NCBI GenBank assembly: GCA_964369475.1
Contig: CAYJFK010000020.1
Coordinates: 13,370 to 37,369 of the forward strand
Source of the DNA: an uncultured Oscillospiraceae bacterium
GTDB lineage: Bacteria; Bacillota; Clostridia; Oscillospirales; Feifaniaceae
DNA: 24,000 nucleotides
Reading direction: 5' to 3'
Part shown: positions 1-15,252 of the stretch, piece after piece
Layout: each line of letters begins with the position of its first letter
How positions within the stretch are numbered: position 1 is the stretch's first letter
Position numbers and translations under genes: made by a program
Notes under the pieces: model-generated
Told to the model about the DNA's origin: nothing
The model's database searches: none
The model's input: only the letters and a program-made list of their open reading frames with translations

Positions 1-747
1 CTTTGGAGGTTTATCACTCGTTAGAACTATCTGCTTTTTTGCCTCGTAAAGCGAGTTAAATGTGTGGAAAAATTCCTCCTGCGTCTGCTCCTTGCCTGCC
101 AAAAACTGCACATCGTCTATCAAAAGGCAGTCGAGCAGTCTGTATTTTTCTCTAAAAGCAGCCATTGTACCCGAACGAATAGAGCCTACAAGCTCGTTTA
201 TAAAGTCCTCCCCTTTTATGTAGCCTATATTACAGCCGGGGTACTTTCTCTTCATCTGATTTCTAACGGCAAACAAAAGGTGAGTCTTGCCAAGCCCTGA
301 TCCGCCATATATAAAGAGCGGATTAAAAGCATCTCCCGGTGTGTCGGTAACGGCGATACAAGCGGCATGTGCAAGCTTGTTGGAACTGCCAACAATAAAG
401 TTAGGGAATGTATACCCTTCTATTGCGCTATACTGCCCCGGCGGCTCGTCGGGCGGTGGTGGTGGCGATATAGGTGTTTTTGATAATGGCGCATTCGGGT
501 CCTCGTTGCTCTTTATGGCAACATAAACGGGAAAGCCCATTACTATCTCTGCCTCACGCACAAAATCGTCGTGATACCTCGATTCTACCACCTGCTTTAC
601 AAAATCGGTGTCGCATTCTAAAACAAGTGTGTCTCCTTTAAATTCGAAGGGTCTTAAATTGTCTATCCATGTATCTATAATTACCTCTGTGTATAGGTTT
701 CTAAGTCGTGCATATATAACTTCCCATATTTCGTGTACTGATTTCAT
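1..747 (-). CDS. dnaA: Chromosomal replication initiator protein DnaA, N-terminal 249 codons (gene continues past the left edge)
   Basis: Absent from the ORF track because it is open at the window edge. Reverse-strand translation from ATG (745-747) gives MKSVHEIWEVIYARLRNLYTEVIIDTWIDNLRPFEF... Walker A LFIYGGSGLGKTHLL and LLIDDVQFLAGKEQTQEEFFHTFNSLYEAKKQIVLTSDKPPK are diagnostic DnaA AAA+ motifs. GGAGGAGG RBS (complement of 754-761) lies 6 nt upstream. Confidence 0.92.
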   Translation of the reverse strand, partial: MKSVHEIWEVIYARLRNLYTEVIIDTWIDNLRPFEFKGDTLVLECDTDFVKQVVESRYHDDFVREAEIVMGFPVYVAIKSNEDPNAPLSKTPISPPPPPDEPPGQYSAIEGYTFPNFIVGSSNKLAHAACIAVTDTPGDAFNPLFIYGGSGLGKTHLLFAVRNQMKRKYPGCNIGYIKGEDFINELVGSIRSGTMAAFREKYRLLDCLLIDDVQFLAGKEQTQEEFFHTFNSLYEAKKQIVLTSDKPPK

Positions 748-992
748 TAACATCCTCCTCCAATAATTGTTTTGCTAAACAACCCCACTTTTTGTGCTGA
801 AATTTATATTTTTATTTTCGAGCACAGTCTTATAATAAGACAAAAATATACAAAATAAACCAAAAAAATTGCATAGAAAATTTCACTTAAAATAGTGCAA
901 ATATGCCCCTATCTACACTACAATTTATTTAAAAAATTAAGCTTAATTTAAATGTCTTAAGAGTGGCTTTTTTAATGCTCTTTATATTGTAC

Positions 993-1021
993 TTGACATG
1001 GCGACAAATACATTATATTAT
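993..1021 (+). promoter_or_regulatory. Sigma-70/SigA-type promoter with no protein gene downstream
   Basis: TTGACA (993-998), 17-nt spacer, TATTAT (1016-1021). The next + strand feature is the hairpin/T-tract at 1192-1241. Confidence 0.4.
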
Positions 1022-1191
1022 ATAAATGTCTTATGGAAAAATAGCCGTAATAAGACGATTTATAATAAGTGGTACGTAGTAAAATTATAACACATTTTGC
1101 GATATTTTACAAGCACATTTTGCAAGGTTTTGCCCAAAAAAGCAAAGTTGTCATAAGATGTCATGCTTAAAAAACTTAAAATTACATAAGA

Positions 1192-1241
1192 ATACCGTAA
1201 AATCTATATTTATAAATAGACTTTACGGTATTTCTCTTTTT
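1192..1241 (+). terminator. Intrinsic terminator (may also act for the minus-strand amidohydrolase gene ending at 1290)
   Basis: 15-bp stem with one mismatch (ATACCGTAAAATCTA 1192-1206 / TAGACTTTACGGTAT 1217-1231) and a 10-nt loop. It is followed on the + strand by TTTCTCTTTTT. Confidence 0.6.
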
Positions 1242-1289
1242 ATGCTATTGTGCAGTTAAAATAAAGGGCTTTATACAAAGTGAAAATTT

Positions 1290-2879
1290 CTATTTGTTAT
1301 ACCTCAAAACCCTACCAAACCTTCCGCCCGTGTATATGCCGTCATCGACCGCTATCTTGCCGTCTACAACTACCGTTATAATACCCTCGGGATGACGTGC
1401 CGCCTCTTTAAAATCGGCAGTGTCGAGAATTTTCTCGGGGTCGAACAAAACAAGGTCGGCGACATTGCCAACATGAAGAACTCCTCTACCGAAAAAGCCA
1501 AAACGAGCGGCAGGAAGGCTTGTCATCTTGCGCACGGCCTCCTCGAGAGGCATAATGCCCTTTTCACGCACATAGCGAGCGAGCACCCTTGCAAAAGATC
1601 CATATGCACGGGGATGACACTTAACGCTATCCGACCCCGGCAAGGTGTCAGACCCTATCATGGTGTAGGGCGACTTCATAACGGTGCAAACATCCTCGTC
1701 ACTCATAGAGCCGTAGCCCACAAGATCGTGACCATTGTTAAGGGCGATTATATCAAGTGCCGTATCTATCGGGTCTTTGCCGTGAATTTCCGACGCTTCG
1801 AGCAGATTAAGCCCCTGATACTGCGGCGTGTGGGGAATGTAAAAGAGCAGTATGGCATCGGGCCCTGTAACGAGTTTAAATTGATTTTCCCAACCATCTA
1901 TGCCGTTATCTATATCCTCTCTAATTCTTCTCCTTACATCGGGGTCGGAGAGCCTTGCGACGGTCTCCTCCACTCCCCCTATCTGCGACCAAGGAGGGAG
2001 CACGGCACGAAGGGTAGTTGCCGATACATTGTACGGATACTGGTCGAGCGTTACATCTATTCCCTCATCACGTGCCGCCTCTATCATGCCGAGCGTTTTG
2101 TTAACGAGCCCCCAGTTGTGCGCCCCTGTGACCTTATGATGATGAATTTGCAGCTTACAGCCCGAGCGCCTCGAGATTTCAAGAACCTCCTCGACAGATG
2201 CCACAAGCTCGTCGCCCTCGTTTCTCATATGGCTTGCAAATATGCCGCCATACTCAACGAGCACCTCGCCAAGCGCTGCAAGCTCGTCTATTGAGCTCCA
2301 AACCCCCGGCGGATAAAATAGACCTGTCGACATGCCAAGCGCCCCTGCCTTCATGGCATCTCGTAGCATATCCTTCATCTTTTCGAGCTCGTCTGTTGTC
2401 GGCGCACGGTCTACAAAGCCCATGGCGGCAATTCTAAGTGTGCCATGACCTACATATGCCGCAAAATTAACGGCGGGCGGCAGTTTGTCGACATAAGAAA
2501 GATACTGCTCGAAAATTCTCCACTCAAAGGGAGGGTTAAGCCCTGCCAGCGTAAAGCCGACATAACGGCGAACTTCTTCTTCAATGTCGTCTGTCAGCGG
2601 AGCAGGAGTAAGGCCGCAAACGCCGCAGACCTGCGTTGTAACGCCCTGCATTAAATTGGCAAGCGTGTCGGGCATAGCCCCGATAATAGATTCATAATGG
2701 GCATGAGTATCTATAAACCCCGGCGCAAGAATATTGCCGCCGCAATCTATAACCCGTATTGCCTCACCGTCGCCACCGATAGCGGCAATCTTGCCGTCCT
2801 TAACAGCGAGCGACGACCTATACCAAGGTGCTCCCGTTCCGTCTACAATTCTTGCATTTTTAAAAAGAATGTCGTACAT
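1290..2879 (-). CDS. N-acyl-D-amino-acid deacylase (D-aminoacylase) family amidohydrolase
   Basis: 529-aa ORF. N-terminus MYDILFKNARIVDGTG...ILAPGFIDTHAHYE carries the HxH metal-binding motif of the amidohydrolase superfamily. Length and layout are typical of D-aminoacylases. GGAGGG RBS upstream. Confidence 0.85.
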   Translation of the reverse strand: MYDILFKNARIVDGTGAPWYRSSLAVKDGKIAAIGGDGEAIRVIDCGGNILAPGFIDTHAHYESIIGAMPDTLANLMQGVTTQVCGVCGLTPAPLTDDIEEEVRRYVGFTLAGLNPPFEWRIFEQYLSYVDKLPPAVNFAAYVGHGTLRIAAMGFVDRAPTTDELEKMKDMLRDAMKAGALGMSTGLFYPPGVWSSIDELAALGEVLVEYGGIFASHMRNEGDELVASVEEVLEISRRSGCKLQIHHHKVTGAHNWGLVNKTLGMIEAARDEGIDVTLDQYPYNVSATTLRAVLPPWSQIGGVEETVARLSDPDVRRRIREDIDNGIDGWENQFKLVTGPDAILLFYIPHTPQYQGLNLLEASEIHGKDPIDTALDIIALNNGHDLVGYGSMSDEDVCTVMKSPYTMIGSDTLPGSDSVKCHPRAYGSFARVLARYVREKGIMPLEEAVRKMTSLPAARFGFFGRGVLHVGNVADLVLFDPEKILDTADFKEAARHPEGIITVVVDGKIAVDDGIYTGGRFGRVLRYNK

Positions 2880-2902
2880 ATTTCCCTCCTAAAATAAAAA
2901 TA

Positions 2903-2917
2903 AGAACAAATGTTTGC
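2903..2917. promoter_or_regulatory. LexA operator (Cheo/SOS box)
   Basis: AGAACAAATGTTTGC matches the Gram-positive GAAC-N4-GTTY SOS box. It overlaps the -35 region of the lexA promoter. Confidence 0.75.
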
Positions 2918-2942
2918 TTTTTTGCATGAGCTGTGCTATAAT
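2914..2942 (+). promoter_or_regulatory. lexA promoter (extended -10)
   Basis: TTGCTT (2914-2919), 17-nt spacer containing TG at 2934-2935, TATAAT (2937-2942). Confidence 0.6.
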
Positions 2943-2998
2943 CAAATTAAGTATATTTTATTGTATTATTCACATTGTGTCAATGCGGAGGTTTTTTT

Positions 2999-3595
2999 AT
3001 GACAAAGGGCGAAAAGAAAAAGATGGAAGTCTATAATTTTATAAGAGACTTTATGGAAGATCAGGGTGTCCCCCCCACAACAAGGGAGATTGGCGACGGT
3101 GTTGGCTTAAAGTCGACCTCGACTGTTTTTATGTATATAAAAAAGCTCGAGGCAGATGGGCTGCTCGGCGGCAGTAGCGGCAGAAAAAGGGGCGCAATGC
3201 CGACAGAAAAAAGAGAGCCCTCGGCATATATCCCCATGCTCGGAACGGTAACGGCAGGCCAGCCAATTTTAGCTATCGAAAGCCACGAGGAGACAGTGCC
3301 TGTCGACCCATCATTTGTTAGAGGCAGAGAACTCTTTGCCCTAAAAATAAAGGGCGACAGCATGATAAATGCAGGCATTTTAGATAAAGACACAGTCTTT
3401 GTAGAACGCACCCCCGACGCAAGAAACGGCGAAATAGTAGTAGCCCTAATAGAAGACGAAGCAACGGTAAAGCGCTTTTACAAAAAAGAAAACGCCTTCT
3501 GGCTAATGCCCGAAAACGATGCCTATCAACCGATCATTGTGGAAGAAGTTGTTATTTTAGGCAAAGTGGTGGGGCTTTTTAGGGATTTTATATAG
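2999..3595 (+). CDS. lexA: LexA repressor (SOS regulator, S24 peptidase)
   Basis: Start placed at ATG 2999 (MTKGEKKK...) with GGAGG 8 nt upstream; the track ORF begins at 2975. N-terminal winged HTH (PPTTREIGDGVGLKSTSTVFMYIKKLE), Ala-Gly cleavage site (VTAGQP), catalytic Ser (KGDSM) and Lys (VKRF). Confidence 0.93.
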   Translation: MTKGEKKKMEVYNFIRDFMEDQGVPPTTREIGDGVGLKSTSTVFMYIKKLEADGLLGGSSGRKRGAMPTEKREPSAYIPMLGTVTAGQPILAIESHEETVPVDPSFVRGRELFALKIKGDSMINAGILDKDTVFVERTPDARNGEIVVALIEDEATVKRFYKKENAFWLMPENDAYQPIIVEEVVILGKVVGLFRDFI

Positions 3596-3613
3596 CAAAA
3601 TCGGAGATTTTGC

Positions 3614-3783
3614 AGGTAAGAAGTAATAGTGAATAAGTAACAACTATGGTGGAAAAACCAAAGGTTTTTCAATAATATATTCAATACTTAATTGCCAACG
3701 GCAATTAAGTTACCATACTTATTACCTATTCACTATTACTTATTACTTAACTTATTCACTTCTTCACTATTACTTATTACTTA
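3614..3783. repeat. Foldback unit 1L: arm - module B - module A - arm' (arm' doubled)
   Basis: Arm AGGTAAG AAGTAAT AGTGAAT AAGTAAC AACTATG G (3614-3649). B is GAAAAACC-AAA-GGTTTTTC (3652-3670). A is CTTAATTGCC-AAC-GGCAATTAAG (3687-3709). The inverted arm spans 3710-3783 with about 10 heptads. Confidence 0.85.
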
Positions 3784-3803
3784 AAAAAAGAGGAGCGTTT
3801 TTT

Positions 3804-4160
3804 ATGAAGGACAGTGAACTTACCCGTCAGTCGGTAGAGCTTTCTGTTTGTATTGTGGAATATTATAAGTGGCTTGTTTATGAGAAAAAAGAATTTGTTA
3901 TGTCTAAGCAGCTACTTAAAAGTGGAACAAGTGTTGGTGCGAATATTCACGAGGCTTTTTATGGAGTTAGTAAGGCAGACTTTATTTCCAAAATGCAGAT
4001 AGCTCTAAAAGAGTGTGCAGAAAGTGAGTATTGGCTCATAATCTTAAAACGCACAAACTATTTTGATATTAAATTTAACCAATTGGAAAACTATATAAAA
4101 TCCCTCAAAAAAATGCTAATATCCACATTAAATACTTCAAAAAAAAGCTTCAATGAGTAA
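3804..4160 (+). CDS. Four-helix-bundle protein (23S rRNA intervening-sequence protein family, PF05635/TIGR02436-like; Avd-like fold)
   Basis: 118-aa ORF with GAGGAG RBS at 3790-3795. The core LLKSGTSVGANIHEAFYGVSKADFISKMQIALKECAESEYWLIIL matches the family signature (QLxRSxxSIxANIAEG...DFxxxxxIAxGSxxEtxYWL). Confidence 0.85.
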   Translation: MKDSELTRQSVELSVCIVEYYKWLVYEKKEFVMSKQLLKSGTSVGANIHEAFYGVSKADFISKMQIALKECAESEYWLIILKRTNYFDIKFNQLENYIKSLKKMLISTLNTSKKSFNE

Positions 4161-4178
4161 TAACTCATTGAAGCTTTT
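4143..4178 (+). terminator. Hairpin spanning the stop codon of the four-helix-bundle gene
   Basis: 15-bp perfect stem AAAAGCTTCAATGAG (4143-4157) / CTCATTGAAGCTTTT (4164-4178) with loop TAATAA containing the stop. A-run and T-run sit inside the stem ends. Confidence 0.5.
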
Positions 4179-4314
4179 TAAGTAAAAAGTAATAGTGAAT
4201 AGGTAATAAGTATGGTAACTTAATTGCCTGTGGCAATTAAGTATTTTATATTATATAGAAAAACCTTTGGTTTTTCCTCCATACTTCTTACTTCTTCACT
4301 ATTACTTATTACCT
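4179..4314. repeat. Foldback unit 1R: arm - module A - module B - arm'
   Basis: Arm AAGTAAA AAGTAAT AGTGAAT AGGTAAT AAGTATG G. A is ACTTAATTGCC-TGT-GGCAATTAAGT (4218-4242). B is GAAAAACC-TTT-GGTTTTTC (4258-4276). The inverted arm spans 4277-4314. Confidence 0.85.
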
Positions 4315-4334
4315 GCAAAATCTTCGATTTTGCC

Positions 4335-6389
4335 TTATACCTCCGTTATAACCGGCAGTATCATTGGGCTTCTCTTTGTTTTATGATAAATATAGCCCGA
4401 AAGTGCATTCTTTATAGCGCTCTTTAGTGCGCCGAATTCGATTGGCATCATGGGGAGGGTTTTGTCTAAGGCGGTGCGTAGTGCGTCGTGTGCGCCGTCC
4501 ATTAGATCCTCTGATTCCTTAACAAATACAAAGCCTCTCGAAACGAGCTCGGGTTGGGAGACAAGCTCGCCTGTGGCACGGTCTACTGTCAAGGCTACAA
4601 CTACAAGGCCGTCCTCGGCGAGGTGCTTTCTGTCACGAAGGACAACACTGCCAACGTCGCCGACACCTATTCCGTCTATAAGCACCTTGCCCGAAGGCAC
4701 TGTACCGTTTAGCTTGCAGCTGTTTGCCGTCATTTCTATAACTCGGCCTATCTCGGAAACAAAAATTCTGCTCTCGTCTATGCCCATTAATTTTGCTGTT
4801 GCAGCGTGGGCAACGAGGTGAGAGTATTCGCCGTGTATCGGAATAAAATATTTCGGCTTTGTAAGTGCCAAAACGAGCTTTTGTTCCTCTTGCGAGGCAT
4901 GGCCCGAAACGTGAACCTCTGCTTGTTTTGTCGTTATTACCTCTGCGCCCCTTTTAAGAAGTCCGTTTATAACCTTGGAGACAGTCTTTTCATTGCCGGG
5001 GATTGGAGAGGCCGAAATAATAACAAGGTCGTCTGGCCCAACTTCAACATTCCTGTGCTCACTCGCCGCCATTCTTGAAAGAGCCGACATGGGCTCGCCC
5101 TGACTGCCGGTAGTAACGAGCACAACACGGTGTGGCTCGTAGTCCTTAATGCGGTCTATGTCTATCAAAATGCCTTCTTCCACATCGATAACACCGAGAG
5201 CAATTGCGGCATTAACATTGTTGATCATAGAGCGACCCGAAACAGCGACCTTTCGTCCTTGCTTGGAGGCGGCATCTATTATCTGCTTAACCCTGTGAAT
5301 GTTAGAGGCAAATGTCGTAACTATAATACGTTTTTTTGTCGTCTCGAAAAGGCGGTCGATGGCACGGGCAACAACATGCTCGCTCTTTGTGTGTCCTGCC
5401 CTCTCGGAATTTGTCGAGTCGGAAAGAAGTGCCAAAACACCCTTTTTACCAAGCTCGCCAAGGCGTGCAAGATCTATCATCTCGCCGTCTATCGGGGTCG
5501 TGTCAATCTTAAAGTCGCCTGTAAATATAATGCGGCCGGCAGGTGTTTCTATGCCGAGCATACATGCATCGGGAATGGAGTGGTTGGCACGAATTATCTC
5601 GACCTTAAAAGAGCCTAAGGTAAGCACATCGCCGTATTCTACTTGATATAGCTCGGTAGTGGCGGTAAGCTTGTGCTCGTCGAGCTTGTTTTTAACAAGT
5701 CCGCATGTAAGCCTTGTGCCGTAGACAGGCGCATTAACCTGCTTTAAAAGGTAGGGTATGCCGCCCGTGTGGTCTTCGTGACCGTGGGTAATAACGATAC
5801 CACGGAGCTTGCTTGCGTTGTTTACCACATAGGTAAAATCGGGTATAACAAGATCGACTCCGGGCATAGAATCGTCGGGGAAGGCTATGCCGCAGTCGAG
5901 CACAAGCATGTCGTCGCCGCACTCGATTACAGTAAGGTTTTTGCCGACCTCGTGCAGTCCGCCAAGCGGGATAATGCGTAGCTTGGAGGAGTTGTCTGTC
6001 TTTAGTGCGGGCGAGCGCTTTAGAATATTTTGCGGCACTCTCGGTGCGGCAGGTTGTGGGGCTTTTCTTGTAGTCATTATCTTGGCACCGCCACGGCGCT
6101 TGTTATTTCTTCCCTTGTTTTGACCGCCCTGACCATTAGATCCTTGTCCACCCTGACCGCTCGTCTTGGTCTGATTTGTATTTGCAGGGGCTGTGCCCTC
6201 TGCTTGCTTGTTTTGCGCCTCGGGCTTTTTCTTAGGCTGAGAGCCGCCCTGTTTGCCGCCTCTCTTGCCTCTGCCTCCCTCGGGCTTTTGAGCGCTCTCT
6301 CCTCTTTTGTCGAAAATAGAGGGCATAACCTCTCCCACATTTTGGGTAGAAGGCCGAGCCTTGCGCTTGGGTTTGTTGTCTTTGTTCAT
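4335..6389 (-). CDS. rnj: Ribonuclease J (metallo-beta-lactamase/beta-CASP) with a ~130-aa basic low-complexity N-terminal extension
   Basis: 684-aa ORF. Contains LRIIPLGGLHEVGKNLTVIE, the HxHxDH motif (ITHGHEDHTGG) and the beta-CASP and C-terminal domains. An alternative internal start at M105 (ATG 6075-6077) would give a canonical ~580-aa protein. Confidence 0.9.
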   Translation of the reverse strand: MNKDNKPKRKARPSTQNVGEVMPSIFDKRGESAQKPEGGRGKRGGKQGGSQPKKKPEAQNKQAEGTAPANTNQTKTSGQGGQGSNGQGGQNKGRNNKRRGGAKIMTTRKAPQPAAPRVPQNILKRSPALKTDNSSKLRIIPLGGLHEVGKNLTVIECGDDMLVLDCGIAFPDDSMPGVDLVIPDFTYVVNNASKLRGIVITHGHEDHTGGIPYLLKQVNAPVYGTRLTCGLVKNKLDEHKLTATTELYQVEYGDVLTLGSFKVEIIRANHSIPDACMLGIETPAGRIIFTGDFKIDTTPIDGEMIDLARLGELGKKGVLALLSDSTNSERAGHTKSEHVVARAIDRLFETTKKRIIVTTFASNIHRVKQIIDAASKQGRKVAVSGRSMINNVNAAIALGVIDVEEGILIDIDRIKDYEPHRVVLVTTGSQGEPMSALSRMAASEHRNVEVGPDDLVIISASPIPGNEKTVSKVINGLLKRGAEVITTKQAEVHVSGHASQEEQKLVLALTKPKYFIPIHGEYSHLVAHAATAKLMGIDESRIFVSEIGRVIEMTANSCKLNGTVPSGKVLIDGIGVGDVGSVVLRDRKHLAEDGLVVVALTVDRATGELVSQPELVSRGFVFVKESEDLMDGAHDALRTALDKTLPMMPIEFGALKSAIKNALSGYIYHKTKRSPMILPVITEV

Positions 6390-6538
6390 TCATGTGTCCT
6401 TTCGAATAATGTTGTTTGTCATATTAAAGCCGCTTTTGTCAGCCGGCATTTTTTTCACAGCTGATAGGCGGAAATATTCTTGTTTAGTATTTATGTTATT
6501 ATATGTTATTTTTCTATATATTGTAGTATTTACAATAT

Positions 6539-6567
6539 ATTATACAAACTGTAAAATATATTGTAAA
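6539..6567 (-). promoter_or_regulatory. Candidate rnj promoter
   Basis: Minus-sense TTTACA (6562-6567), 17-nt spacer ending in TG, TATAAT (6539-6544). This predicts a ~140-nt leader. Confidence 0.5.
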
Positions 6568-6604
6568 ATTCCAAGTCTTATAATCGGCATTCACAGGTAA
6601 TATT

Positions 6605-7117
6605 CTACAATAAGTATAATATCTTATATACCTTTGAAACGAGCTCGACCCTGTCTACATATGTCGCCGTCTCGGTATAGGGGATGTCGCCACGGCCTAT
6701 GCCATCGGCTATCCAGCCCTCTACACGGTTTGGGCCTGCGTTGTAAGAGGCAAGGGCGATCCATAGCGAGTTGCCCTCCATAAGCATTGACAGATAGTAA
6801 CTGCCGTAATCAATATTAACGGCGGCACTATATAAATCTTCTTGTGGCAGATCTCGTTTTTGCCTTAACCATTCGTATGTGTCGGGCATTATCTGCATTA
6901 AACCGCAAGCGCCGACAGGGGAGGTTGCATTTTCGTTAAATCTGCTCTCTGCCCAAATAACGGCATAAATAAGCTCCTCGGGAATGCCGTGATCGGTGGC
7001 GGCGGCGCTTACCTCTGCCCTATAATCTCGGGGGAATAGCTCTGTTAGCTGAAAAAGTGCCAAACAAAAGAGCAATGTTAAAGAGAGCAAAGAGACAAAA
7101 ACTCTCCTTGCCGCCAT
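6605..7117 (-). CDS. Lytic transglycosylase (SLT domain) with N-terminal membrane anchor
   Basis: SLT catalytic motif AVIWAESRFNENATSPVGACGLMQIMPDTYEW. Start placed at ATG 7115-7117 (MAARRVFVSLLSLTLLF..., signal/anchor). The track start at 7189 would overlap coaE by 59 nt. Confidence 0.8.
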   Translation of the reverse strand: MAARRVFVSLLSLTLLFCLALFQLTELFPRDYRAEVSAAATDHGIPEELIYAVIWAESRFNENATSPVGACGLMQIMPDTYEWLRQKRDLPQEDLYSAAVNIDYGSYYLSMLMEGNSLWIALASYNAGPNRVEGWIADGIGRGDIPYTETATYVDRVELVSKVYKILYLL

Positions 7118-7130
7118 CTTTTTCTTTTTA

Positions 7131-7706
7131 CTATAAGCCGAGTTTTTTCGCAACGGCGTCCACCTGACGGGCGACACTCTCCATGTCACCGTCGTTAATA
7201 ATTACATGATCGGCATGAGAAGTGAAAAACTCCTCGCCCTTCTGTGCGGCAAGACGTGCCTCTGCCTGCTCCTTTGTTATACCGTCCCTCTCCATAATGC
7301 GAGAGAGAGATAGCTCGTAAGGCGCAATAACAGCAACGACAGGCCAGCCCCTGCCGCCCTCTATAAATTTTATGGCATCAACAATAATCGCTTTAGCGGT
7401 GCTCTTTTCCTCTATTTCACGAGAGAGTATTCCAAGGTGCTTATAAACAATATCCTCGAGCACCTTCATCTTTGCAGGATCGGCAAATACAATAGGGCCC
7501 AAGACCTTGCGGTTAACTGCGCCGTCCTCGCCTATAATGCCCTCGCCGAAATACTCGGCAAGCTCTGCCGCGCACTGGGTATTAGGGCCTTGCACCTTAT
7601 GTACAAGCTTGTCCGAGTCGATGTGCTCTGCTCCGTGCTTTTCAAAAAGGCGAGCGACGGTGCTCTTGCCGACACCGCTCCTACCCGTTATTCCAAATTT
7701 AATCAT
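7131..7706 (-). CDS. coaE: Dephospho-CoA kinase
   Basis: 191 aa with P-loop GITGRSGVGKSTVA followed by ...IDSDKLVH. Typical CoaE length. Confidence 0.88.
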   Translation of the reverse strand: MIKFGITGRSGVGKSTVARLFEKHGAEHIDSDKLVHKVQGPNTQCAAELAEYFGEGIIGEDGAVNRKVLGPIVFADPAKMKVLEDIVYKHLGILSREIEEKSTAKAIIVDAIKFIEGGRGWPVVAVIAPYELSLSRIMERDGITKEQAEARLAAQKGEEFFTSHADHVIINDGDMESVARQVDAVAKKLGL

Positions 7707-7740
7707 ATCTATCGTTGTCCTTTAGCTCGTATAATAACTA

Positions 7741-8200
7741 TACCCCTGCGCACCCCGCTCCACCGCATGGGGCGATCGGGCGCATCACTTAACATCCGGC
7801 GCCCTGTGGCTTCAAAAACGGGTTCGGATTATATCTATCACCCTACGCAAGCACGGGCGGCTCTGCACGCAAAATGCTTCGACTAAAATTACAGCAGGGC
7901 GCATTTTGCGTGCGCCTTTGCGGCTTAGTGCCGTGCTTATGTCTTTGGTGCTCCCAAAAAAGGAAAGAGAGGTTGCCTTATGCTGTGTGCCCCTTGCCGC
8001 AAAGGCTCTCGCTCCCGCAGGAGCGAGCGAGCCGCCCACCGAGCCCCATGCGGTGGAGCGTGGTCTTGTAGGGGGCAGATGCATGGGGGCGTGCGAAGTA
8101 TACGCACTGAGCATGGGCGCTCTCTGCGACTATGGAGCGAAAGAGGCATATTGCAAAGCTCCATGTGCCGCCATAGGAGAGAGCGAGCATAGTAGGTTTT
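7741..8200. ncRNA. GC-rich, helix-dense non-coding region; candidate large structured RNA or GC-rich inserted element of unknown family
   Basis: All six frames are open (six overlapping 65-100-aa ORFs in the track, none protein-like). Perfect helices: 7756-7773/8043-8060 (18 bp), 7865-7877/7901-7913 (13 bp), 7914-7924/7996-8006 (11 bp). Further helices: 8009-8015/8020-8026, and 8118-8125/8178-8185 enclosing 8132-8138/8159-8165. Two helix extensions are U-G only if read on the + strand. Confidence 0.45.
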
Positions 8201-8229
8201 AGAAAAATCTTATGCCTATCTAATCCACA

Positions 8230-9249
8230 CTACACCCTTATAACTCTATGCCCTGCCGCCTTAATAAGCCTGTTATAAAGAGCAAGGCCAAGACCCTCTC
8301 TTTTTGGGACGGGGCAATATATCTCTGTTGCTCCTATATCGTCGGCAGTCCTAAGTGCGGCAAATATATTGTGAGCCGCCTCGCCAAGATCTCTGCCGAG
8401 CGTTATAACATTATATCCTTCAAAACTTGCCGCATCGCTCTCAAGACAGAGCAAAACGGCATTTTTCTTTGCCTTCATAAAATCCGTCACGGCAGAGGGG
8501 TCACCCTCCACCAAATAGAGCTCCCCCTTAGGGGCATAATGACGATACTTCATTCCGGGCGACGAGGGGATGCTCCCCTTTTCAATCTCCCCCAAAACAG
8601 CACGGTCAATATCAATGCTTCCAATAACTTCCTCTATCTCCTCGGCAGTTACACCACCCGGACGCAGTAGCCTCGGGGGAGATACCGCAAGCGAAAGCAC
8701 GGTCGACTCAAGCCCGACATCGCACTGTCCGCCCTCCAAAATAAAGCCAAGATCCTCCCCAAAATCGCCATCTACATGAAGTGCGGTAGTGGGCGACGGT
8801 CTGCCCGATATATTGGCAGAGGGAGCGGCAATAGGAAGCCCTGCTCGCCTAATTAAATCGAGCGCCACAGGATGCGACGGCATACGCACCGCCACAGTAT
8901 CAAGCCCTGCCGACACAATGTGCGGCACAATGTCGCTCTTTTTCAAAACAAGAGTAAGTGCCCCCGGCCAAAACTTTTGAGTTAAGCTGTATGCCTCTTT
9001 CGGAATATCACAGCACAACATTTCAAGCATCTCTACGCTACTAATGTGCAGTATAAGAGGATTGTCCGACGGCCTGCCCTTTGCCTTATAAATAAGACTG
9101 CAAGCCGCCCCATCAAGTCCATTTGCGCCAAGCCCATATACCGTCTCTGTCGGAAAGGCAACAAGTCCCCCCTCCTTAAGTATATCGGCCGCTATTTCTA
9201 TATTTTGCTCGGTAGGGGGAAATATTCGCCCCCCCTCCATATTTATCAT
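8230..9249 (-). CDS. tsaC: L-threonylcarbamoyladenylate synthase (Sua5/YwlC type, with C-terminal Sua5 domain)
   Basis: 339 aa with the YrdC-domain motif [15 protein letters not shown]...[13 protein letters not shown]. The start overlaps the prfA stop (ATGA, 9246-9249). Confidence 0.88.
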
Positions 9250-10313
9250 GCGTTACCCTCTGCGCCCTTTAGCTTTTCGGCACGATCTGCCGTAATAAGC
9301 GCATCTATCATCTCGTCAAGATCGCCATTCATAAAGGCCTCGAGTTTATATAGCGTTAGAGTAATTCTATGATCGCTAACACGCCCCTGAGGGAAATTAT
9401 ATGTGCGAATACGCTCGCTCCTATCGCCCGTACCGACCTGCAACTTACGCTCTGCCGCAGTCTTTGCGGTCTGCTCCGACTGCATCTTCTCGTATATACG
9501 AGAGCGAAGAACACGCATAGCCTTATCTTTATTCTTGTGCTGACTGCGCTCGTCTTGGCACTCTACAACAATACCTGTCGGCACATGGGTAATTCTAATG
9601 GCAGACTCTGTCTTATTAACATGCTGACCACCCGCACCACCTGCACGGAATGTGTCAATCTCAAGATCGGCAGTGTTAATTTCAACCTCGACCTCCTCGG
9701 CCTCGGGCAAAACGGCAACGGTAACGGTCGATGTGTGAATACGCCCCGAAGACTCGGTATCGGGCACACGCTGAACTCTGTGAACACCCGACTCAAACTT
9801 AAGACGGCTATAAGCCCCCTCGCCCTCTACCATAAAGCTAATTTCCTTAATACCGCCAAGCTCTGTCTCGTTTATAGACATAACCTCGGTCTTAAATTTA
9901 TGGCTTTCGGCATACATGGTGTACATGCGGTAAAGCGAATGAGCAAAAAGTGCCGCCTCGTCGCCGCCTGCACCGCCTCTAATTTCCACAATAACGCTCT
10001 TGTCGTCGTTGGGATCTTTGGGAAGTAGCAAAATCTTTAGCTCCTCAAGGCAGTTCTCGATTGTCTCCTTCGACGAGTGAAACTCCTCCTCGGCAAGCTC
10101 TGCCATGTCAGGATCACTCATAAGCTCCTTTGCATCGTCGTGCGCAGCGACGGCCGCCTTGTACTCCCTGTACTTTTCAACAATGGGAGTAAGATTTTTA
10201 AACTCCCTCATCAGTTCACGATACAAATTCTGATCGGAAACAACATCAGGGTCAGACAACTGACCCTCTATTTCAATATAGCGACTCTCTACCGCCGCAA
10301 GGCTTTCAAGCAT
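9246..10313 (-). CDS. prfA: Peptide chain release factor 1
   Basis: 355 aa with the GGQ motif ([21 protein letters not shown]) and an RF1-type recognition region ([24 protein letters not shown]). Confidence 0.93.
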
Positions 10314-10407
10314 GTTTTAACCATCCATTCTAAAATATATATTATCGCCTGTGCGACAACTTTATAATACTATCTATATCTACCCAAAATATCAAAAAGA
10401 GCAAGCA

Positions 10408-10617
10408 TTAACCAAGTTCTATGTTGCCATCTTCAACCGCTTTACTCTCGACACTCTTAATGCCGCCGACAGCCTTAGACCGTACCATCCAAAGCTCCCT
10501 ACCGCACCCTTCACACTTAAACCGAATGTCCATCCCCGTCCGCATAACAACAAACCGACTACTGCCACAGGGGTGCTTTTTCTTCATAATGCAAATATCC
10601 CCAACATTCAGTATCAT
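10408..10617 (-). CDS. DUF951 family small protein (zinc-ribbon-like)
   Basis: 69 aa. MKKKHPCGS...RTGMDIRFKCEGCGR is the pattern typical of DUF951 (YyzM-like). AAAGGAG RBS upstream. Confidence 0.7.
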   Translation of the reverse strand: MILNVGDICIMKKKHPCGSSRFVVMRTGMDIRFKCEGCGRELWMVRSKAVGGIKSVESKAVEDGNIELG

Positions 10618-10716
10618 AAAAAGTGCTCCTTTTTAGGCAATTACAAATAAACGCTTCTCTGCAATTATATATATTATCATATGTAGGGAAAAAATTCAAG
10701 ATAAATATAATAAATT

Positions 10717-10980
10717 AAGAACTATATAAGTAAGAACTATACTAAGTAATAGGTAATAGTGAAGAAGTAATAACTATGGAAAAAATTGCTTGCGCAATTT
10801 TAATTATATTCGGAGCTAAACCCCAACGGGGTTTAGCGGATAAGCAAAAAAACGCTATGCGACATTTTGTCGCATAGCGTTTTTTACCCTCAAATTGCCA
10901 AAGGCAATTTGATATTTCTAATATAAAAGCGGTAGCTTTTACACCATAGCTCTTACTTCTTACTTATTACTTATTACTTA
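10717..10980. repeat. Heptad-armed foldback element 2: arm - F - G - C - D - E - arm'
   Basis: Arm AAGTAAT AGGTAAT AGTGAAG AAGTAAT AACTATG G (10744-10779), preceded by partial arm duplications. F spans 10782-10801, G 10815-10837, C 10846-10885, D 10891-10911, E 10925-10940. The inverted arm spans 10944-10980 (5 heptads). Confidence 0.85.
10846..10885. terminator. Bidirectional intrinsic terminator (module C), downstream of the ABC operon
   Basis: A7 - CGCTATGCGACA - TTT - TGTCGCATAGCG - T6. Confidence 0.7.
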
Positions 10981-10989
10981 AAAACCCTC

Positions 10990-11631
10990 TCACCCCACAT
11001 CGACTCCTTCCATGACCTTTCGTGAAAGTTTTCTCGAAAAGTAGTGTGCAAGTAGGCATAACGGTAACGATGATATTGCGCCGAGGGAGATCGTTGTTAG
11101 GTCGGCAGACATTTGAAGACCCATAAGACCGCTGTAACCGGCTATCGGGATAAATACCAACAAAAACATTAATATCCTTGTCTTTTCCACACCGTATTTG
11201 TAAAGAATGGGGATCGATACCGCCTGATAAAGTAGGCTGACCGACATTGTTATAAAGATAAGCATTACCCCAACTATCGCTATGTCATATTCAAGCCCGT
11301 ATAGCATGGAATGAATCAAAACAAGCAGAGTGGAAATGCCGCCGCCGACAAATATAGTCAGTAGGCCAAAGCTGTATCTGCCGTCTACAACTTCTTTTCT
11401 TGTTACATTTAAGGTCATAGCATACTTGTTGCCGCCCGACATTGCGTCGTAGCTAAAGGCGGAATATATCTGCGAGCCCAATATAAAGACAAGCACCGAG
11501 TATAAAAATGACATGTCGGTTATTATGCCGATGGCAAGATATACGACCCCGAGAAGCAAAACGGTGTTGAGCGATTTGCTTGAATTTTGCCAATCCTTGA
11601 GCACAAGCCCATTAACTGCTGATTTTCTCAT
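10990..11631 (-). CDS. ABC-2 family transporter permease
   Basis: 213 aa, about 6 predicted TM helices, GGAGG RBS. Last gene of the GntR-ABC operon. Confidence 0.75.
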   Translation of the reverse strand: MRKSAVNGLVLKDWQNSSKSLNTVLLLGVVYLAIGIITDMSFLYSVLVFILGSQIYSAFSYDAMSGGNKYAMTLNVTRKEVVDGRYSFGLLTIFVGGGISTLLVLIHSMLYGLEYDIAIVGVMLIFITMSVSLLYQAVSIPILYKYGVEKTRILMFLLVFIPIAGYSGLMGLQMSADLTTISLGAISSLPLCLLAHYFSRKLSRKVMEGVDVG

Positions 11632-11639
11632 AATTCCTC

Positions 11640-12254
11640 CTAACTCTCCTTTCTCTCGAGCACCCTTGCAGAGAGCCTGCTCGAGAGAAAATAAACAAAA
11701 AGCGACGCCACAAATGCAAGTGGGTTAGACGGGGCAATGTGCGCATCGCCACCAAAGGTAAAAATAGAAACCATAGGAACTAACATAAATAAAAACATTA
11801 AAATTTTTGTGCGCTCTACCCCAAAGCGGTACAAAAAGGGCATTACCAAAGACTGATACAATGTAGCGCTCCATGCGGAGATAAATATAACATTAATGGC
11901 ATTGGATATTGCTACATCATTTGTTATAAAGGACTGAATATAAACCATGGCAATCGATATTAAGAGACCTGTCACCGTCATTACAATCCCATACATATAC
12001 CTTGCCGTTATAATTTCTCGCCGTGTCACATTGAGTGTCATTGCGTAGGTGTCAAACTTCGACAGGCTGTCGAATGTAAAAGAGGTGCTTACCTGCCCTG
12101 CCATTACAAAGACAAGTACCGCATATAAAAAGGTCTCGCCTTGTAAAATGCCTATAACTAAATAGATGCCGCATAGCAAAAGTATAACAAGTGCCGCTGT
12201 TTGCACATTTAATAGCTCCTTTAAAACAAGCCCCCTTATTGCCCTGACCCTCAT
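11640..12254 (-). CDS. ABC-2 family transporter permease (paralog)
   Basis: Start set at ATG 12252-12254 (MRVRAIRGLVLKELL...), overlapping the ATPase stop (TAATG). Its N-terminus parallels MRKSAVNGLVLKDWQ of the paralog. The track ORF start at 12431 is an out-of-frame run into the ATPase gene. Confidence 0.75.
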   Translation of the reverse strand: MRVRAIRGLVLKELLNVQTAALVILLLCGIYLVIGILQGETFLYAVLVFVMAGQVSTSFTFDSLSKFDTYAMTLNVTRREIITARYMYGIVMTVTGLLISIAMVYIQSFITNDVAISNAINVIFISAWSATLYQSLVMPFLYRFGVERTKILMFLFMLVPMVSIFTFGGDAHIAPSNPLAFVASLFVYFLSSRLSARVLERKES

Positions 12255-13099
12255 TATTGCGCTCTCCTTGTGTAGTTGATCATAATGTCCTCGACCGACG
12301 GACGCAGACAGCTCGCCTCGTCTATGCCGACCCCACGAAGTACAAGCGCCTCGACACCAAACGACCCCTCTCTGTGGGAAATAACAGCCTCGCTCGGGAT
12401 TTGCATAAAGCTCTCCACACTCCCCTTCCATATTGCATGACGGTCGAGCAGATCGTCCTTGCCCTCCGAAAGAAGTATCTCGCCGCCATCTATCATTGTT
12501 ATAATGTCGGCAACCTTGTCAAGATCGCTCGTAATGTGGGAGGAGATCAAAATGGCGCACCCCTCGTCCTCTACAATGTCACGCAGAATGTCGAGTATCT
12601 CGTCACGCACAAGGGGATCGAGCCCCGAGGTCGCCTCGTCGAGCAGTAGCAGTCTCGGCCGCCTTGCAAGCACCGTTGCAAGATATAGCTTCATCTGCAT
12701 TCCCCTCGACATCTCCTTTAGTTTTTTGTCAAAGGGTAGCTGAAACCTTTTCATGTAGCTTGCAAATAGCTCGCTGTCCCATGTCGAGTACATTGTCGAG
12801 AGCACCTTCTCTATCTTCTTTGCATTAACTTGATCGTAGAAAAAAGCCCCGTCGAGCACCGTGCCTATCTCCTGCTTAACATCAAACTCGTGCGCTATAT
12901 TGTCACGGCCGAATATCTCGATAGTGCCGCTCGAGCGCTTTATCATGTTAAGTATAAGCTTAATGGTCGTCGTCTTGCCGCTTGCATTTGCGCCAACAAA
13001 ACCCATAATCGTGCCGCCCTCAAGCGTAAAGGAGACATTTTTCAGCTCGAACCCATCGTATTTCTTGCAAACATTTTCAAGTTTTAAAACCACGCTCAT
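12254..13099 (-). CDS. ABC transporter ATP-binding protein
   Basis: 281 aa with Walker A GANASGKTT, signature MSRGMQMKL and Walker B LLLLDEATSGLD. Confidence 0.9.
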   Translation of the reverse strand: MSVVLKLENVCKKYDGFELKNVSFTLEGGTIMGFVGANASGKTTTIKLILNMIKRSSGTIEIFGRDNIAHEFDVKQEIGTVLDGAFFYDQVNAKKIEKVLSTMYSTWDSELFASYMKRFQLPFDKKLKEMSRGMQMKLYLATVLARRPRLLLLDEATSGLDPLVRDEILDILRDIVEDEGCAILISSHITSDLDKVADIITMIDGGEILLSEGKDDLLDRHAIWKGSVESFMQIPSEAVISHREGSFGVEALVLRGVGIDEASCLRPSVEDIMINYTRRAQ

Positions 13100-13476
13100 T
13101 ATTTTTCCTCCCCATCTGTCAAAACCTTTAGCATATCGTGCAAAAGATCCTTCTCTATTCCATACTTATCGGCAATCGCAAGGGCACTCGCCATTGCCGC
13201 CCTTATCTGTTTTATACCCTCTTTGCGCATGTCCTTGGCAGATCCGCCCTTAACAAAACTTCCCCTGCCCACCATGCTCTCTATTATGCCGAGGCGCTCG
13301 AGCTCCTCGTATGCCCTCTTTGTCGTTATAACGCTAACCCTAAGCTCGCTGGCAAGCGCTCTCATGGAGGGCAGTGGGTCGCCCTTCTTTAGCTCCCCCG
13401 ACAAAATCGCAAAGCGTATGCCATCTATAATCTGCTCGTATATAGCACCGCCATCGGGCTTTATTATTATGTTCAA
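13099..13476 (-). CDS. GntR family transcriptional regulator, YtrA subfamily
   Basis: 125 aa. GntR wHTH (LPSMRALASELRVSVITTKRAYEELERLGII) with a short C-terminal region. Its stop overlaps the ATPase start (TAATG). Confidence 0.88.
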   Translation of the reverse strand: MNIIIKPDGGAIYEQIIDGIRFAILSGELKKGDPLPSMRALASELRVSVITTKRAYEELERLGIIESMVGRGSFVKGGSAKDMRKEGIKQIRAAMASALAIADKYGIEKDLLHDMLKVLTDGEEK

Positions 13477-13511
13477 GCAGTGACCTCCCCTCTGTTGTTT
13501 TTGTTGTATTG

Positions 13512-13530
13512 TGTATATACAATATATACA
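13512..13530. promoter_or_regulatory. Candidate YtrA-type operator
   Basis: Perfect inverted repeat TGTATATA-CAA-TATATACA, 36 nt upstream of the GntR start codon. Confidence 0.5.
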
Positions 13531-13612
13531 ATTTGAGAGCCTTTGTCAAGTGCTTTTGAGAAAATTTTTTAAACTGGAAAAATCAGTCAAGCTTATCGTG
13601 GGATTAGTTAAG

Positions 13613-13655
13613 CAGTAACTAAGAAGTAATAAGTATGGCATAAAAGCTCTGCTTT
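13613..13655. repeat. Solo/degenerate half copy of the foldback element (arm + E-like hairpin)
   Basis: AGTAACT AAGAAGT AATAAGTATGG arm-like sequence followed by AAAAGC-TCT-GCTTTT. No matching inverted arm. Confidence 0.5.
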
Positions 13656-13733
13656 TAATTTAAAAATGCCGTGGTATCTTAAAAATATTACTGTACACAT
13701 TTCACAAAAAAATCACACAGTTACAAATAACCA

Positions 13734-13761
13734 TTGAAAAATCCCGAATTTGTGATATAAT
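13734..13761 (+). promoter_or_regulatory. Promoter of the lipoprotein gene (extended -10)
   Basis: TTGAAA (13734-13739), 16-nt spacer, TGaTATAAT (13753-13761). Confidence 0.6.
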
Positions 13762-13817
13762 ATTACAGCGTAACTTTTGAGTTTCGCAAAATAAACAAAA
13801 CGGAGAGATTAAACAGT

Positions 13818-14483
13818 ATGAAAAACATAGCAAAAATCGCAATACTTCTTGCTCTGTGCCTTGTTATGACGGCATGCAGCGGCGGCGGTATAGATGCAGG
13901 CGCTTACATGAACTTAGAGCTGCAATCTACTTACCTAAACAACCACACACAGGAATTTATCGACATGCTTTCGGACGATGTAACGGTAGAAGACCTCGAA
14001 GAAATGTACTATGGCGGCGTAGAGGCTGAGGTAGATTTCTTCCTTGGTTACTATTTGGAAATATACACCGAAATGCTCTCGCAAGAGACAATCGATCGTG
14101 CAAACACACTTTTTGATCAGATCTACACAAACACAAAATACGAAATAGGCGAAGTTCGTGAGAGCGGCTCCAACTACGAAGTAGACATAACAATCTACCC
14201 GATCGACATTATCGAGAAGGTAATAACGGTAGAGTTTGTAACAGAGGCACTCGAGGCAGTCTACTCGCAAGAGGGCGCAGATGAAATGGCAATGGAGGAG
14301 CTCGAGGAGCAGTACACAGACATTATCCTTACAGCCTTAGAAGAAAACTTAGCGGCGATCGGCCACTTAGAGCCTGTAACAATAACAGCCCTAATCATAG
14401 GCGGCGACAGCTACTACGAACTAAACGACACAAGCTGGCAAGAAATCGACACCTACATCATCAGCTACGGCAGTGAGGGTTAA
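13818..14483 (+). CDS. Putative acidic lipoprotein
   Basis: 221 aa with a signal peptide and lipobox (LALCLVMTAC). GGAGAG RBS. The mature part is very acidic. Confidence 0.75.
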   Translation: MKNIAKIAILLALCLVMTACSGGGIDAGAYMNLELQSTYLNNHTQEFIDMLSDDVTVEDLEEMYYGGVEAEVDFFLGYYLEIYTEMLSQETIDRANTLFDQIYTNTKYEIGEVRESGSNYEVDITIYPIDIIEKVITVEFVTEALEAVYSQEGADEMAMEELEEQYTDIILTALEENLAAIGHLEPVTITALIIGGDSYYELNDTSWQEIDTYIISYGSEG

Positions 14484-14484
14484 T

Positions 14485-14811
14485 AAAAATTGCTTTGGCA
14501 ATTTTTAGGTAATAGGTAATAGTGAAGAAGTAAGAGGTAATAGTGAATAAGTAATAAGTATGGTAACTTAATTGCCTTTGGCAATTAAGTATTAAATATT
14601 ATATAGAAAAACCCCAAAGGGTTTTTCTGCCATACCTAGTACTTCTTGCCTAAGTAAAAAAACGCTGTGCGACAATATGTCGCACAGCGTTTTTTTACTC
14701 TCAAATTGCCAAGGGCAATTTGATATGTTTAATATAAAAGCGGTAGCTTTTACACCATAGTTATTACTTCTTCACTATTACCTATTACTTCTTCACTCTT
14801 ACCTCTTACTT
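14485..14811. repeat. Heptad-armed foldback element 3: F - arm(8 heptads) - A - B - degenerate arm' - C - D - E - arm'(8 heptads)
   Basis: F spans 14485-14506. Arm AGGTAAT AGGTAAT AGTGAAG AAGTAAG AGGTAAT AGTGAAT AAGTAAT AAGTATG G (14507-14562). A spans 14565-14589, B 14606-14627, C 14656-14696, D 14702-14722, E 14736-14751. The inverted arm spans 14755-14811. Confidence 0.85.
14656..14696. terminator. Bidirectional intrinsic terminator (module C) between the convergent lipoprotein and comEA genes
   Basis: A7 - CGCTGTGCGACA - ATA - TGTCGCACAGCG - T7. Confidence 0.7.
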
Positions 14812-15252
14812 TAAAAAAACCACAAACTCCAAAAGCCCCTCCAAGACCTTCTCCCCAATGCCGGAGACCGCCAGTAAATCTTCTGCCTCGCTGTATGGCC
14901 TGCCCTCTATAATGCGCTCAGCTATTGTCGGGCCTATGCCGGGGAGGGTGTCGAGTAGGTCGGCAGGGGCGCTGTTTATGTCTATCTTGCCGTCTATTAT
15001 ATACTGCGGTGGCGTAGTGTCGTTTTGCTCCGACTGCACTAAAGTGCCGTCTCCATAGCCGACACGATTGCCGCCCAAAAGGAGCATGGCAAGGCAAGAG
15101 CATAGCAAAATGGCAAAGAGCACAAGATAAAACCCAACAGACCCTCGCCTTACCGCCCTTTTCTCGGGCAGAGGTGAGGCCGTATGGCCTCCCTCGTCTT
15201 TGCTCATGAGCAGCGATATATAATGCTCCGAGTCACGCTTGTTACTATCCAC
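14806..15252 (-). CDS. comEA: ComEA family helix-hairpin-helix DNA-binding protein
   Basis: 148 aa, GTG start with GGGGGTG RBS and one TM helix. C-terminal HhH repeats (INSAPADLLDTLPGIGPTIAERII...LLAVSGIGEKVLEGL). Confidence 0.85.
   Translation of the reverse strand: MDSNKRDSEHYISLLMSKDEGGHTASPLPEKRAVRRGSVGFYLVLFAILLCSCLAMLLLGGNRVGYGDGTLVQSEQNDTTPPQYIIDGKIDINSAPADLLDTLPGIGPTIAERIIEGRPYSEAEDLLAVSGIGEKVLEGLLEFVVFLK

Follow-up and report, generated by a model that had tools for sequence, protein, structure and literature searches.

What lies between tsaC and coaE in this genome, and does it amount to an RNA gene? The stretch considered here, called the window throughout, is 24,000 nucleotides (nt) of contig CAYJFK010000020.1 (positions 13,370 to 37,369 of the forward strand) in assembly GCA_964369475.1, from an uncultured Oscillospiraceae bacterium of the Feifaniaceae. 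A first-pass annotation, made from the letters of the window, picked out positions 7741-8200 between tsaC and coaE as a GC-rich, helix-dense region that would be either an unassigned structured RNA or a GC-rich insert, with a ~300-bp MITE (miniature inverted-repeat transposable element) as another way to read it. The structure that was noticed is real, and the region has been inserted; an RNA gene is not established. The DNA may well be a lineage-specific, possibly composite, palindromic insertion of selfish or passenger DNA that is passively transcribed with the surrounding operon, a reading that is preferred here but held tentatively. Such an insert would be either captured foreign DNA or an element of the non-autonomous repeat or foldback type.

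An insertion at a tight gene junction

The region 7741-8200 is the GC-rich core of a longer spacer between two intact genes, delimited by the map of open reading frames (ORFs) and by Pfam.

7707-8229: whole non-coding spacer, from the coaE start to the tsaC stop, 523 nt
7131-7706, minus strand: coaE (dephospho-CoA kinase), intact; PF01121, E 2.9e-32 (Pfam)
8230-9249, minus strand: tsaC/sua5 (threonylcarbamoyl-AMP synthase), intact; PF01300 and PF03481 (Pfam)

In the two closest syntenic relatives, L001 and L002, tsaC and coaE overlap by 7 nt (ATGTTGA), and in a third, L198, they are separated by 1 nt. Further afield the two genes are often one: of the 120 best TsaC/Sua5 homologs, 72 are TsaC-CoaE fusions of 555-558 amino acids (one of 593) carrying PF01300, PF03481 and PF01121, with names including Oscillibacter, Dysosmobacter and Pusillibacter. 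In alignments, the C-terminus of TsaC and the N-terminus of CoaE encoded in the window align end to end with those of the relatives; the C-terminal length of TsaC matches theirs, and the coaE start is aligned with their start. Because both gene ends are at homologous positions, the 523 nt are extra DNA placed between the stop codon of tsaC and the start codon of coaE, both of them intact. By this sequence comparison, the spacer is an insertion at a junction that is tight in the syntenic relatives examined. The first-pass annotation had proposed an insert and an empty-site comparison to check it, and both were borne out: the spacer is missing from all syntenic relatives examined, with an empty site in L001, L002 and L198 and a fused gene in many homologs.

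In one lineage, L199/L200, an uncharacterised ORF of 195 amino acids lies between tsaC and coaE. The TsaC homolog of L002 (5001-6209, P0003) has a 63-residue N-terminal extension, rich in Cys, Ala and Gly, that is unique among the aligned homologs.

The lineage itself is nearly unsampled, because CoaE and PrfA each stand alone when ~15 billion proteins are clustered at 90% identity and the best TsaC homolog, the contig's own protein aside, is only 57% identical. Exact look-ups of CoaE and TsaC for contigs of the same species returned no match.

Composition and coding capacity

The GC content of 7741-8200 is 58% as against 45.7% for the window, with a peak of 64-67%, so the region was rightly described as GC-richer than its surroundings; other intergenic DNA in the window has 27-35% GC. 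The spacer is a mosaic in which GC-rich blocks alternate with host-like AT-rich linkers, at 31, 73, 46, 59 and 31% GC for 7707-7742, 7743-7804, 7805-7854, 7855-8190 and 8191-8229, respectively. Tandem repeats were not found in it.

The first-pass annotation had described the region as open in all six frames, which does not hold: only the plus-strand frame 7738-8199 is open, and the other five have 3-7 stops each. Stops are still depleted: there are 21, where dinucleotide shuffles have 31.2 +/- 3.9 (p 0.005). Yet, a Pfam scan of all six spacer frames found no family, the open plus-strand frame had no match in 5.8 billion clustered proteins and 1.84 billion representatives, and a 105-codon minus-strand frame had none in the 5.8 billion clustered proteins. 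None of the spacer ORFs is present in the protein collection of ~15 billion. Judged by these searches, the spacer is without coding capacity.

A short motif recurs through the element. GCATGGGG occurs five times in the window (0.84 expected), three of the five being in the element, and its variant GCATGGGCG is found at 8111. The motif copies reported in the first-pass annotation are thus present, but the first of them starts at 7765 rather than 7766.

Predicted fold

The helices were located by inverted-repeat search and in minimum free energy (MFE) structures and are as follows.

7752-7773: left arm of the main stem S1 (22 nt, 95%), with an imperfect outer extension back to 7743
8043-8064: right arm of S1, the stem enclosing 269 nt, with an imperfect outer extension to 8074
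7778-7804: hairpin h1, GGGCGC/GCGCCC with a 15-nt loop, in the MFE structures of both strands
7855-8037: inner domain, a four-way junction closed by a perfect 9-bp helix (7855-7863/8029-8037)
7865-7877/7901-7913: inner hairpin of 13 bp, perfect (inverted-repeat search and MFE)
7914-7924/7996-8006: inner hairpin of 11 bp, perfect, part of 7908-7924/7996-8012 (17 nt, 88%)
8008-8015/8020-8027: inner hairpin of 8 bp, loop CGCA on the plus strand and UGCG on the minus strand
8091-8107: small hairpin, GTGCG-aagtata-CGCAC, with the motif GCATGGGGGC in front of it at 8081-8090
8113-8190: 78-nt hairpin, 8113-8125/8178-8190 around 8131-8138/8159-8166, preceded by GCATGGG (8111-8117)

The 18-nt core of S1 (7756-7773/8043-8060) is perfect, and its 18-mer is confined in the window to the two arms, with 0.01 occurrences expected. 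The stem extends imperfectly to ~31 nt (7743-7773/8043-8074), and its pair probabilities on the minus strand are 0.88-1.0. Within the inner domain, three hairpins are joined by linkers of 0-1 nt, with a pair probability of 0.997-0.998. The complementary segments named in the first-pass annotation were all recovered at their places, and the 9-bp helix that closes the four-way junction is an addition to that list.

The MFE of 7707-8229 is -229 kcal/mol on the plus strand and -223 kcal/mol on the minus strand, as against averages of -188 and -184 for shuffles. This corresponds to z-scores of -5.6 and -5.8, respectively, and none of 100 shuffles folded as well. In sliding sub-windows of 150 nt (40 shuffles each) z was mostly 0 to -2, with isolated values of -4.0 (7825-7974, minus strand) and -3.3 (7975-8124, plus strand); since the sub-windows are mostly unremarkable, the fold signal comes from long-range pairs. 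Against 31 tiled windows of 460 nt covering positions 1-16,060, the element has a z of -4.9. The tiles at 4161 (-7.8) and 14561 (-8.6) lie below it and both hold an unrelated AT-rich palindromic repeat, while tile 9881-10340 (-4.5) falls just short of it.

The fold is nearly the same on either strand. The core helices are purely Watson-Crick (18/18, 13/13, 11/11, 9/9 and 8/8), and the MFE of 7741-8200 is -214.4 on the plus strand versus -212.5 on the minus strand, with 15 and 8 G-U pairs, respectively, the plus strand adding a few G-U extensions. Helix extensions that are U-G only on the plus strand had been pointed out in the first-pass annotation; there are indeed more G-U pairs on that strand, but the energies are equal and permit no strand call. 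The unpaired bases are A-rich on both strands, so that composition gives no strand decision either. Where selection acts on an RNA from one strand, the sense fold is usually clearly better than the antisense fold. In terms of the folding model, the symmetry seen here is that of DNA inverted repeats and is atypical of such an RNA.

Database searches

Rfam 15 gave no match at the gathering score anywhere in the window. With the threshold relaxed to E<=10, positions 7600-8350 gave four noise matches (E 1.8-8.7; 13-16 bits as against thresholds of 40-60), and the families left unmatched include ROOL, GOLLD, OLE, raiA, HEARO, 6S, RNase P, tmRNA, SRP, group I and II introns and riboswitches. The first-pass label of "unassigned" therefore holds under the Rfam scan that had been suggested as a check, as no family reached its gathering score and the matches in 7600-8350 are noise with E>1. 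ARAGORN found no tRNA or tmRNA.

Searches for the element elsewhere yielded chance matches. With cut-offs of E 1e-5 and E 5, blastn of phage and plasmid collections returned only chance matches of 27-45 nt, and a 16-mer of the main stem gave chance matches among the matches listed for GTDB genomes. The exact 18-mer of the main stem had 74 single chance matches in JGI metagenomes, in GC-rich soil contigs and with no element-like locus, and in IMG/VR one chance match in a GC-rich phage gene; the hairpin pattern had no match in IMG/VR. No second copy is present in the 24-kb window. Since no homolog was found by these searches, there is no covariation evidence.

Candidate partner genes were looked for among the 18 larger ORFs scanned in the window, which encode transporters, DUF proteins or proteins with housekeeping roles. 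No reverse transcriptase, TnpB/IscB nuclease, transposase or recombinase is among them. A retron msr-msd, an ωRNA and a bridge RNA were considered and rejected, as no partner gene for them is found among these ORFs.

One further GC-rich gap is present in the window. Positions 15253-15359 form an intercistronic gap of 107 nt with ~61% GC and a folding energy of -43 kcal/mol on the minus strand, located between a DEAD-box helicase gene (15360-16568, minus strand) and a ComEA-like HHH gene (14806-15252, minus strand). It has a 10-mer, CGCTCCACCG, and an 8-mer, CTTGTAGG, in common with the spacer, a similarity that is not significant (p 0.14).

A possible new structured RNA

These results bear most directly on whether the spacer holds a new structured non-coding RNA, either as a domain of the operon mRNA on the minus strand or as an antisense or independent RNA on the plus strand, whose multi-branch fold would be functional and acquired in this lineage. 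Taken together, they make such an RNA rather unlikely. Its case is built on the z-score of about -5.6 for the full region, the GC content of 58-67% as against 27-35% in the other intergenic DNA of the window, and a four-way junction that is compact, with linkers of 0-1 nt. The sequence GCAUGGGG(C) followed by a hairpin occurs in three direct copies and might compete to pair with the main stem's 3' arm, the plus strand has its additional G-U helix extensions, and the minus strand has a cUGCGg tetraloop of the UNCG type at 8016-8019. As the region is in no Rfam family, such an RNA would be new. On the other hand, lack of a homolog leaves it without covariation evidence, its helices are long and perfect where older functional RNAs are typically irregular with G-U pairs, and the energy is equal on both strands, which the composition of the unpaired bases likewise fails to tell apart. 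It is also not bounded by a promoter or terminator, and it owes its position to an insertion between genes that are tightly joined in all relatives examined.

In a more specific form, the spacer would represent an unseen class of branched RNA of ~330-460 nt that is restricted to a clostridial lineage with very poor sampling. A small insertion would carry it, and it would act in the operon transcript or as an antisense RNA, with the GCAUGGGG-hairpin modules serving as protein-binding or switching elements. This is distinctly unlikely.

Long GC-rich multi-helix intergenic regions in Bacillota-type genomes of moderate GC content are also where ROOL, GOLLD, OLE, raiA and HEARO are found, and in this the spacer resembles them. 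It differs in that no model matches at E<=10, no homologs are found, and its helices are perfect and strand-symmetric.

Comparison with mobile and intercistronic elements

The preferred reading, a palindromic DNA insertion, is supported by the tight or fused junction in relatives, the strand symmetry of the almost entirely Watson-Crick helices, the lack of promoter and terminator calls inside the spacer on the operon strand, the lack of a known RNA family or coding signal, and the mosaic composition with its junction-like 17-mer. It can be compared with known repeat elements, and by analogy the element works most like a MITE or a REP-type intercistronic palindrome. Prokaryotic MITEs are typically AT-rich and can have as few as 1-22 copies per genome (PMC10969869). 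Transcripts bearing MITEs form stable stem-loops that are cut by RNase III, and mRNAs bearing Correia elements are cut at the paired repeats (PMC10969869). Like Correia, ERIC, QMITE and Chunjie, the spacer is small (<500 bp in these elements) and non-coding, has an inverted repeat of ~22-31 nt, and occupies an intergenic site inside an operon, its transcript being predicted as a very stable stem-loop. The part bounded by the repeat, 7743-8074, is ~332 bp and without a transposase, which is within the size of a MITE, while the whole spacer is 523 bp. The ~300-bp MITE of the first-pass annotation is accordingly right about its 18-bp inverted repeat, which exists and extends imperfectly to ~31 nt, but its bounds are not those of the extra DNA, which includes a further 36 nt on the left (7707-7742) and 154 nt on the right (8076-8229). 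The repeat is thus internal rather than terminal, and unlike a MITE the spacer is GC-rich; no target-site duplication directly flanks the inverted repeat, and no second copy or parent insertion sequence was found in the sequences searched.

The resemblance to REP/BIME elements (REPINs) is of another kind. Here too the DNA is GC-richer than the host, hairpins in alternating orientation are clustered between genes that share an operon, beside them stands a conserved short motif in single-stranded form (here GCATGGGG), and the element would be co-transcribed. E. coli REP elements are co-transcribed and stabilise the upstream mRNA. Unlike REP/BIME elements, the hairpins of the spacer are mutually different, the unit is much larger and branched, and neither a RAYT gene nor other copies are found in the 24 kb.

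Several of these observations weigh against a palindromic selfish or passenger insertion. No second copy was found in the 24-kb window or, by exact 18-mer, in JGI metagenomes and IMG/VR, and the homology searches for the element, which used exact words or translated frames besides blastn against phages and plasmids, are weak ones. No target-site duplication directly flanks the inverted repeat (ACTATA/CCCCT … AGGGG/GCAGAT), the true ends of the inserted DNA are without terminal inverted repeats, and the element is GC-rich where MITEs are typically AT-rich. A GC content more than 20 points above that of other intergenic DNA, combined with a compact multi-branch fold, is moreover a signature by which functional structured RNAs are found. 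The two-step origin discussed below adds two points of the same tendency: the support for a junction relic is post hoc and borderline, and homology between the two proposed blocks beyond the 22-nt repeat is not significant (p 0.16-0.9).

Palindromic inserts are clearly tolerated in this genome, which fits the preferred reading. An AT-rich hairpin repeat, unrelated in sequence to the GC-rich spacer, fills the majority of the window's other long intergenic gaps.

3589-3750, 4178-4339, 10743-10980, 14484-14820, 22253-22395 and 23051-23134: AT-rich palindromic repeat of ~160 nt, in most long intergenic gaps

Its core reads ...GTAATAGTGAATAAGTAATAAGTATGGTAACTTAATTGCC...GGCAATTAAGT..., and the copy at 14484-14820 is paired and without an ORF, with a perfect 22-bp central hairpin at 14653-14699. 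This abundant repeat also provides the arms of an AT-rich cassette of ~750 bp (3589-4339) that fills the gap between the convergent genes lexA (2975-3595, plus strand) and RNase J (4335-6389, minus strand). The cassette gene (3804-4160) encodes a 118-residue protein of PF05635 ('23S rRNA-intervening-sequence protein', E 4.7e-24), and the repeat flanks it twice, as 162-nt inverted repeats (3589-3750/4178-4339, 90% complementary) of which each arm is a hairpin; a perfect 17-bp hairpin follows the gene. From its sequence organisation, 3589-4339 looks like a mobile cassette.

Origin of the spacer

It could be speculated that the spacer was inserted in two steps, as a possible trace of the original gene junction lies within it.

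7828-7844, minus strand: internal 17-mer AGGGTGATAGATATAAT, candidate relic of the tsaC/coaE junction

This 17-mer joins the last two tsaC codons (AGGGTG, 8238-8233) to the sequence at the start of coaE (GATAGATATGAT, 7713-7702), with 11 of 12 positions alike, and MAFFT placed the tsaC ends of the relatives at the site of the 17-mer (7844-7828). A composite-match test, designed post hoc, had 1 shuffle in 1000 that scored as high as the actual sequence; the separate alignments of the relic are individually not significant (p 0.07-0.38). Short AT-rich direct repeats tied to the gene junction are found at 8238-8222, 7844-7828 and 7718-7702, their pairwise significance being weak. AGGGTGATAGATATAAT may be a relic of the original tsaC/coaE junction that splits the spacer into two inserted blocks. 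If it is real, the order would be left flank, X, left plus right flank, Y and right flank, which would represent two successive insertions with target duplications. X would cover ~7845-8229 (about 385 nt) and Y ~7714-7827 (about 114 nt), and the main 22-bp stem would join a part of one block to a part of the other. Target duplications, long and diverged, were looked for among the AT-rich linkers as well and set aside as weak (p 0.18, 0.025 and 0.49).

The spacer could also be neutral filler, that is, foreign or local DNA caught once when the junction broke, by illegitimate recombination or as template-switch palindromes, with neither mobility nor function. The sequence is single-copy in everything searched, has no element-like termini and no target-site duplication around its inverted repeat, and differs in composition from the host, all of which fits. 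Yet, in a genome with 46% GC, filler should drift towards AT and lose its perfect helices unless it is very recent, and neither the stop depletion (p 0.005) nor one fully open frame of 154 codons is predicted by it. A template-switch origin in particular predicts likeness to nearby sequence, of which none was found, and filler is on these grounds improbable.

Transcription and possible effects on the operon

Under the preferred reading of a palindromic insertion, the consequences would be felt in the minus-strand operon in which the spacer lies. This comprises DUF951, prfA, tsaC/sua5, coaE, an SLT transglycosylase gene and RNase J (ORF map, Pfam), and includes the following features besides the genes given above.

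9246-10313, minus strand: prfA (ORF map and Pfam)
6605-7189, minus strand: SLT transglycosylase (ORF map and Pfam)
4335-6389, minus strand: RNase J, rnj (ORF map and Pfam)
7718-7722, minus strand: putative coaE ribosome-binding site AAGGA, 11 nt 5' of the ATG, in the insert's AT-rich 3' tail

The interior of the spacer has no promoter or terminator calls on the operon strand. The only calls in 7400-8500 are a promoter-like site at 8342-8370, inside tsaC, and a terminator-like hairpin at 7919-7935, both on the plus strand, and the number of calls in this interval equals that in shuffles. A lone TATAAT that the first-pass annotation had noted is present at 7730-7735 rather than 7729-7734; no usable -35 box goes with it, and the promoter scan did not call it. 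With neither its own promoter nor its own terminator, the insert would be transcribed passively on the minus strand as part of the prfA-tsaC-coaE-slt-rnj operon.

In this mRNA, the 22-bp stem, imperfectly extended to ~31 bp, and the inner four-way junction would form. The insertion would have broken the translational coupling of tsaC and coaE, leaving coaE to use its own AAGGA in a largely unpaired AT-rich tail. From its sequence and position, AAGGA is likely to be the coaE ribosome-binding site, and in the minus-strand ensemble it is mostly unpaired (unpaired probability 0.81-0.98), with G7720 at only 0.45. The long stem could plausibly be a site of RNase III cleavage or other processing, or a barrier to exonucleases, and the duplex would then shift the relative stability of the tsaC and coaE halves of the message. 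The analogies for such an effect are REP/BIME and Correia elements and the intercistronic stem-loops that set transcript ratios in clostridial operons (PMC4423207). As in the clostridial operons, stable structures would stand between the cistrons of one transcript, but in those operons they are plain stem-loops located at the 3' ends of genes, and their processing sites have been mapped (PMC4423207), whereas the spacer has a branched predicted structure of 460 nt and originated by insertion. If the fold forms in the mRNA, processing or stabilisation like that by clostridial stem-loops would be its most plausible consequence.

A cis-regulatory leader of coaE, acting as a riboswitch-like element or attenuator for a CoA-related signal through competing GCAUGGGG pairings, is very improbable: the spacer is directly upstream of coaE, has the ribosome-binding site in its 3' tail and offers alternative 7-8-bp pairings (8044-8051 with 8081-8088 or 8111-8117), but the 8-bp alternatives would be overwhelmed by the 22-bp stem, no terminator or helix sequestering the mostly unpaired ribosome-binding site (0.81-0.98; G7720 0.45) is found, the element is far larger than known aptamers and missing from all relatives examined, and the Rfam riboswitch models are without a match.

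A self-splicing group I or II intron, another ribozyme or an assembly artefact is scarcely credible, for although the size and dense structure recall an ORF-less group I intron, tsaC and coaE are fused in relatives, and the source is a single metagenome-assembled contig of 37,929 bp at NCBI, there is no match to Intron_gpI (RF00028), Intron_gpII or a ribozyme even at E<=10, the genes are each complete with the stop of tsaC and the start of coaE at homologous positions, the tsaC reading frame reaches a stop 83 codons into the spacer, and for an artefact two chimeric joins would have to be precise enough to spare both genes.

Implications

If the spacer were a true RNA, an under-sampled lineage would have yielded a new class of large RNA, and arguing so requires homologs or expression data. 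If it is only a palindromic insert, a gene pair that is tightly coupled in relatives and fused elsewhere has been pried apart with both genes surviving, and the downstream gene would now use a ribosome-binding site supplied by the insert. Inserts of this kind, being GC-rich and folding with a strongly negative z-score, would mimic the signatures of structured RNA.

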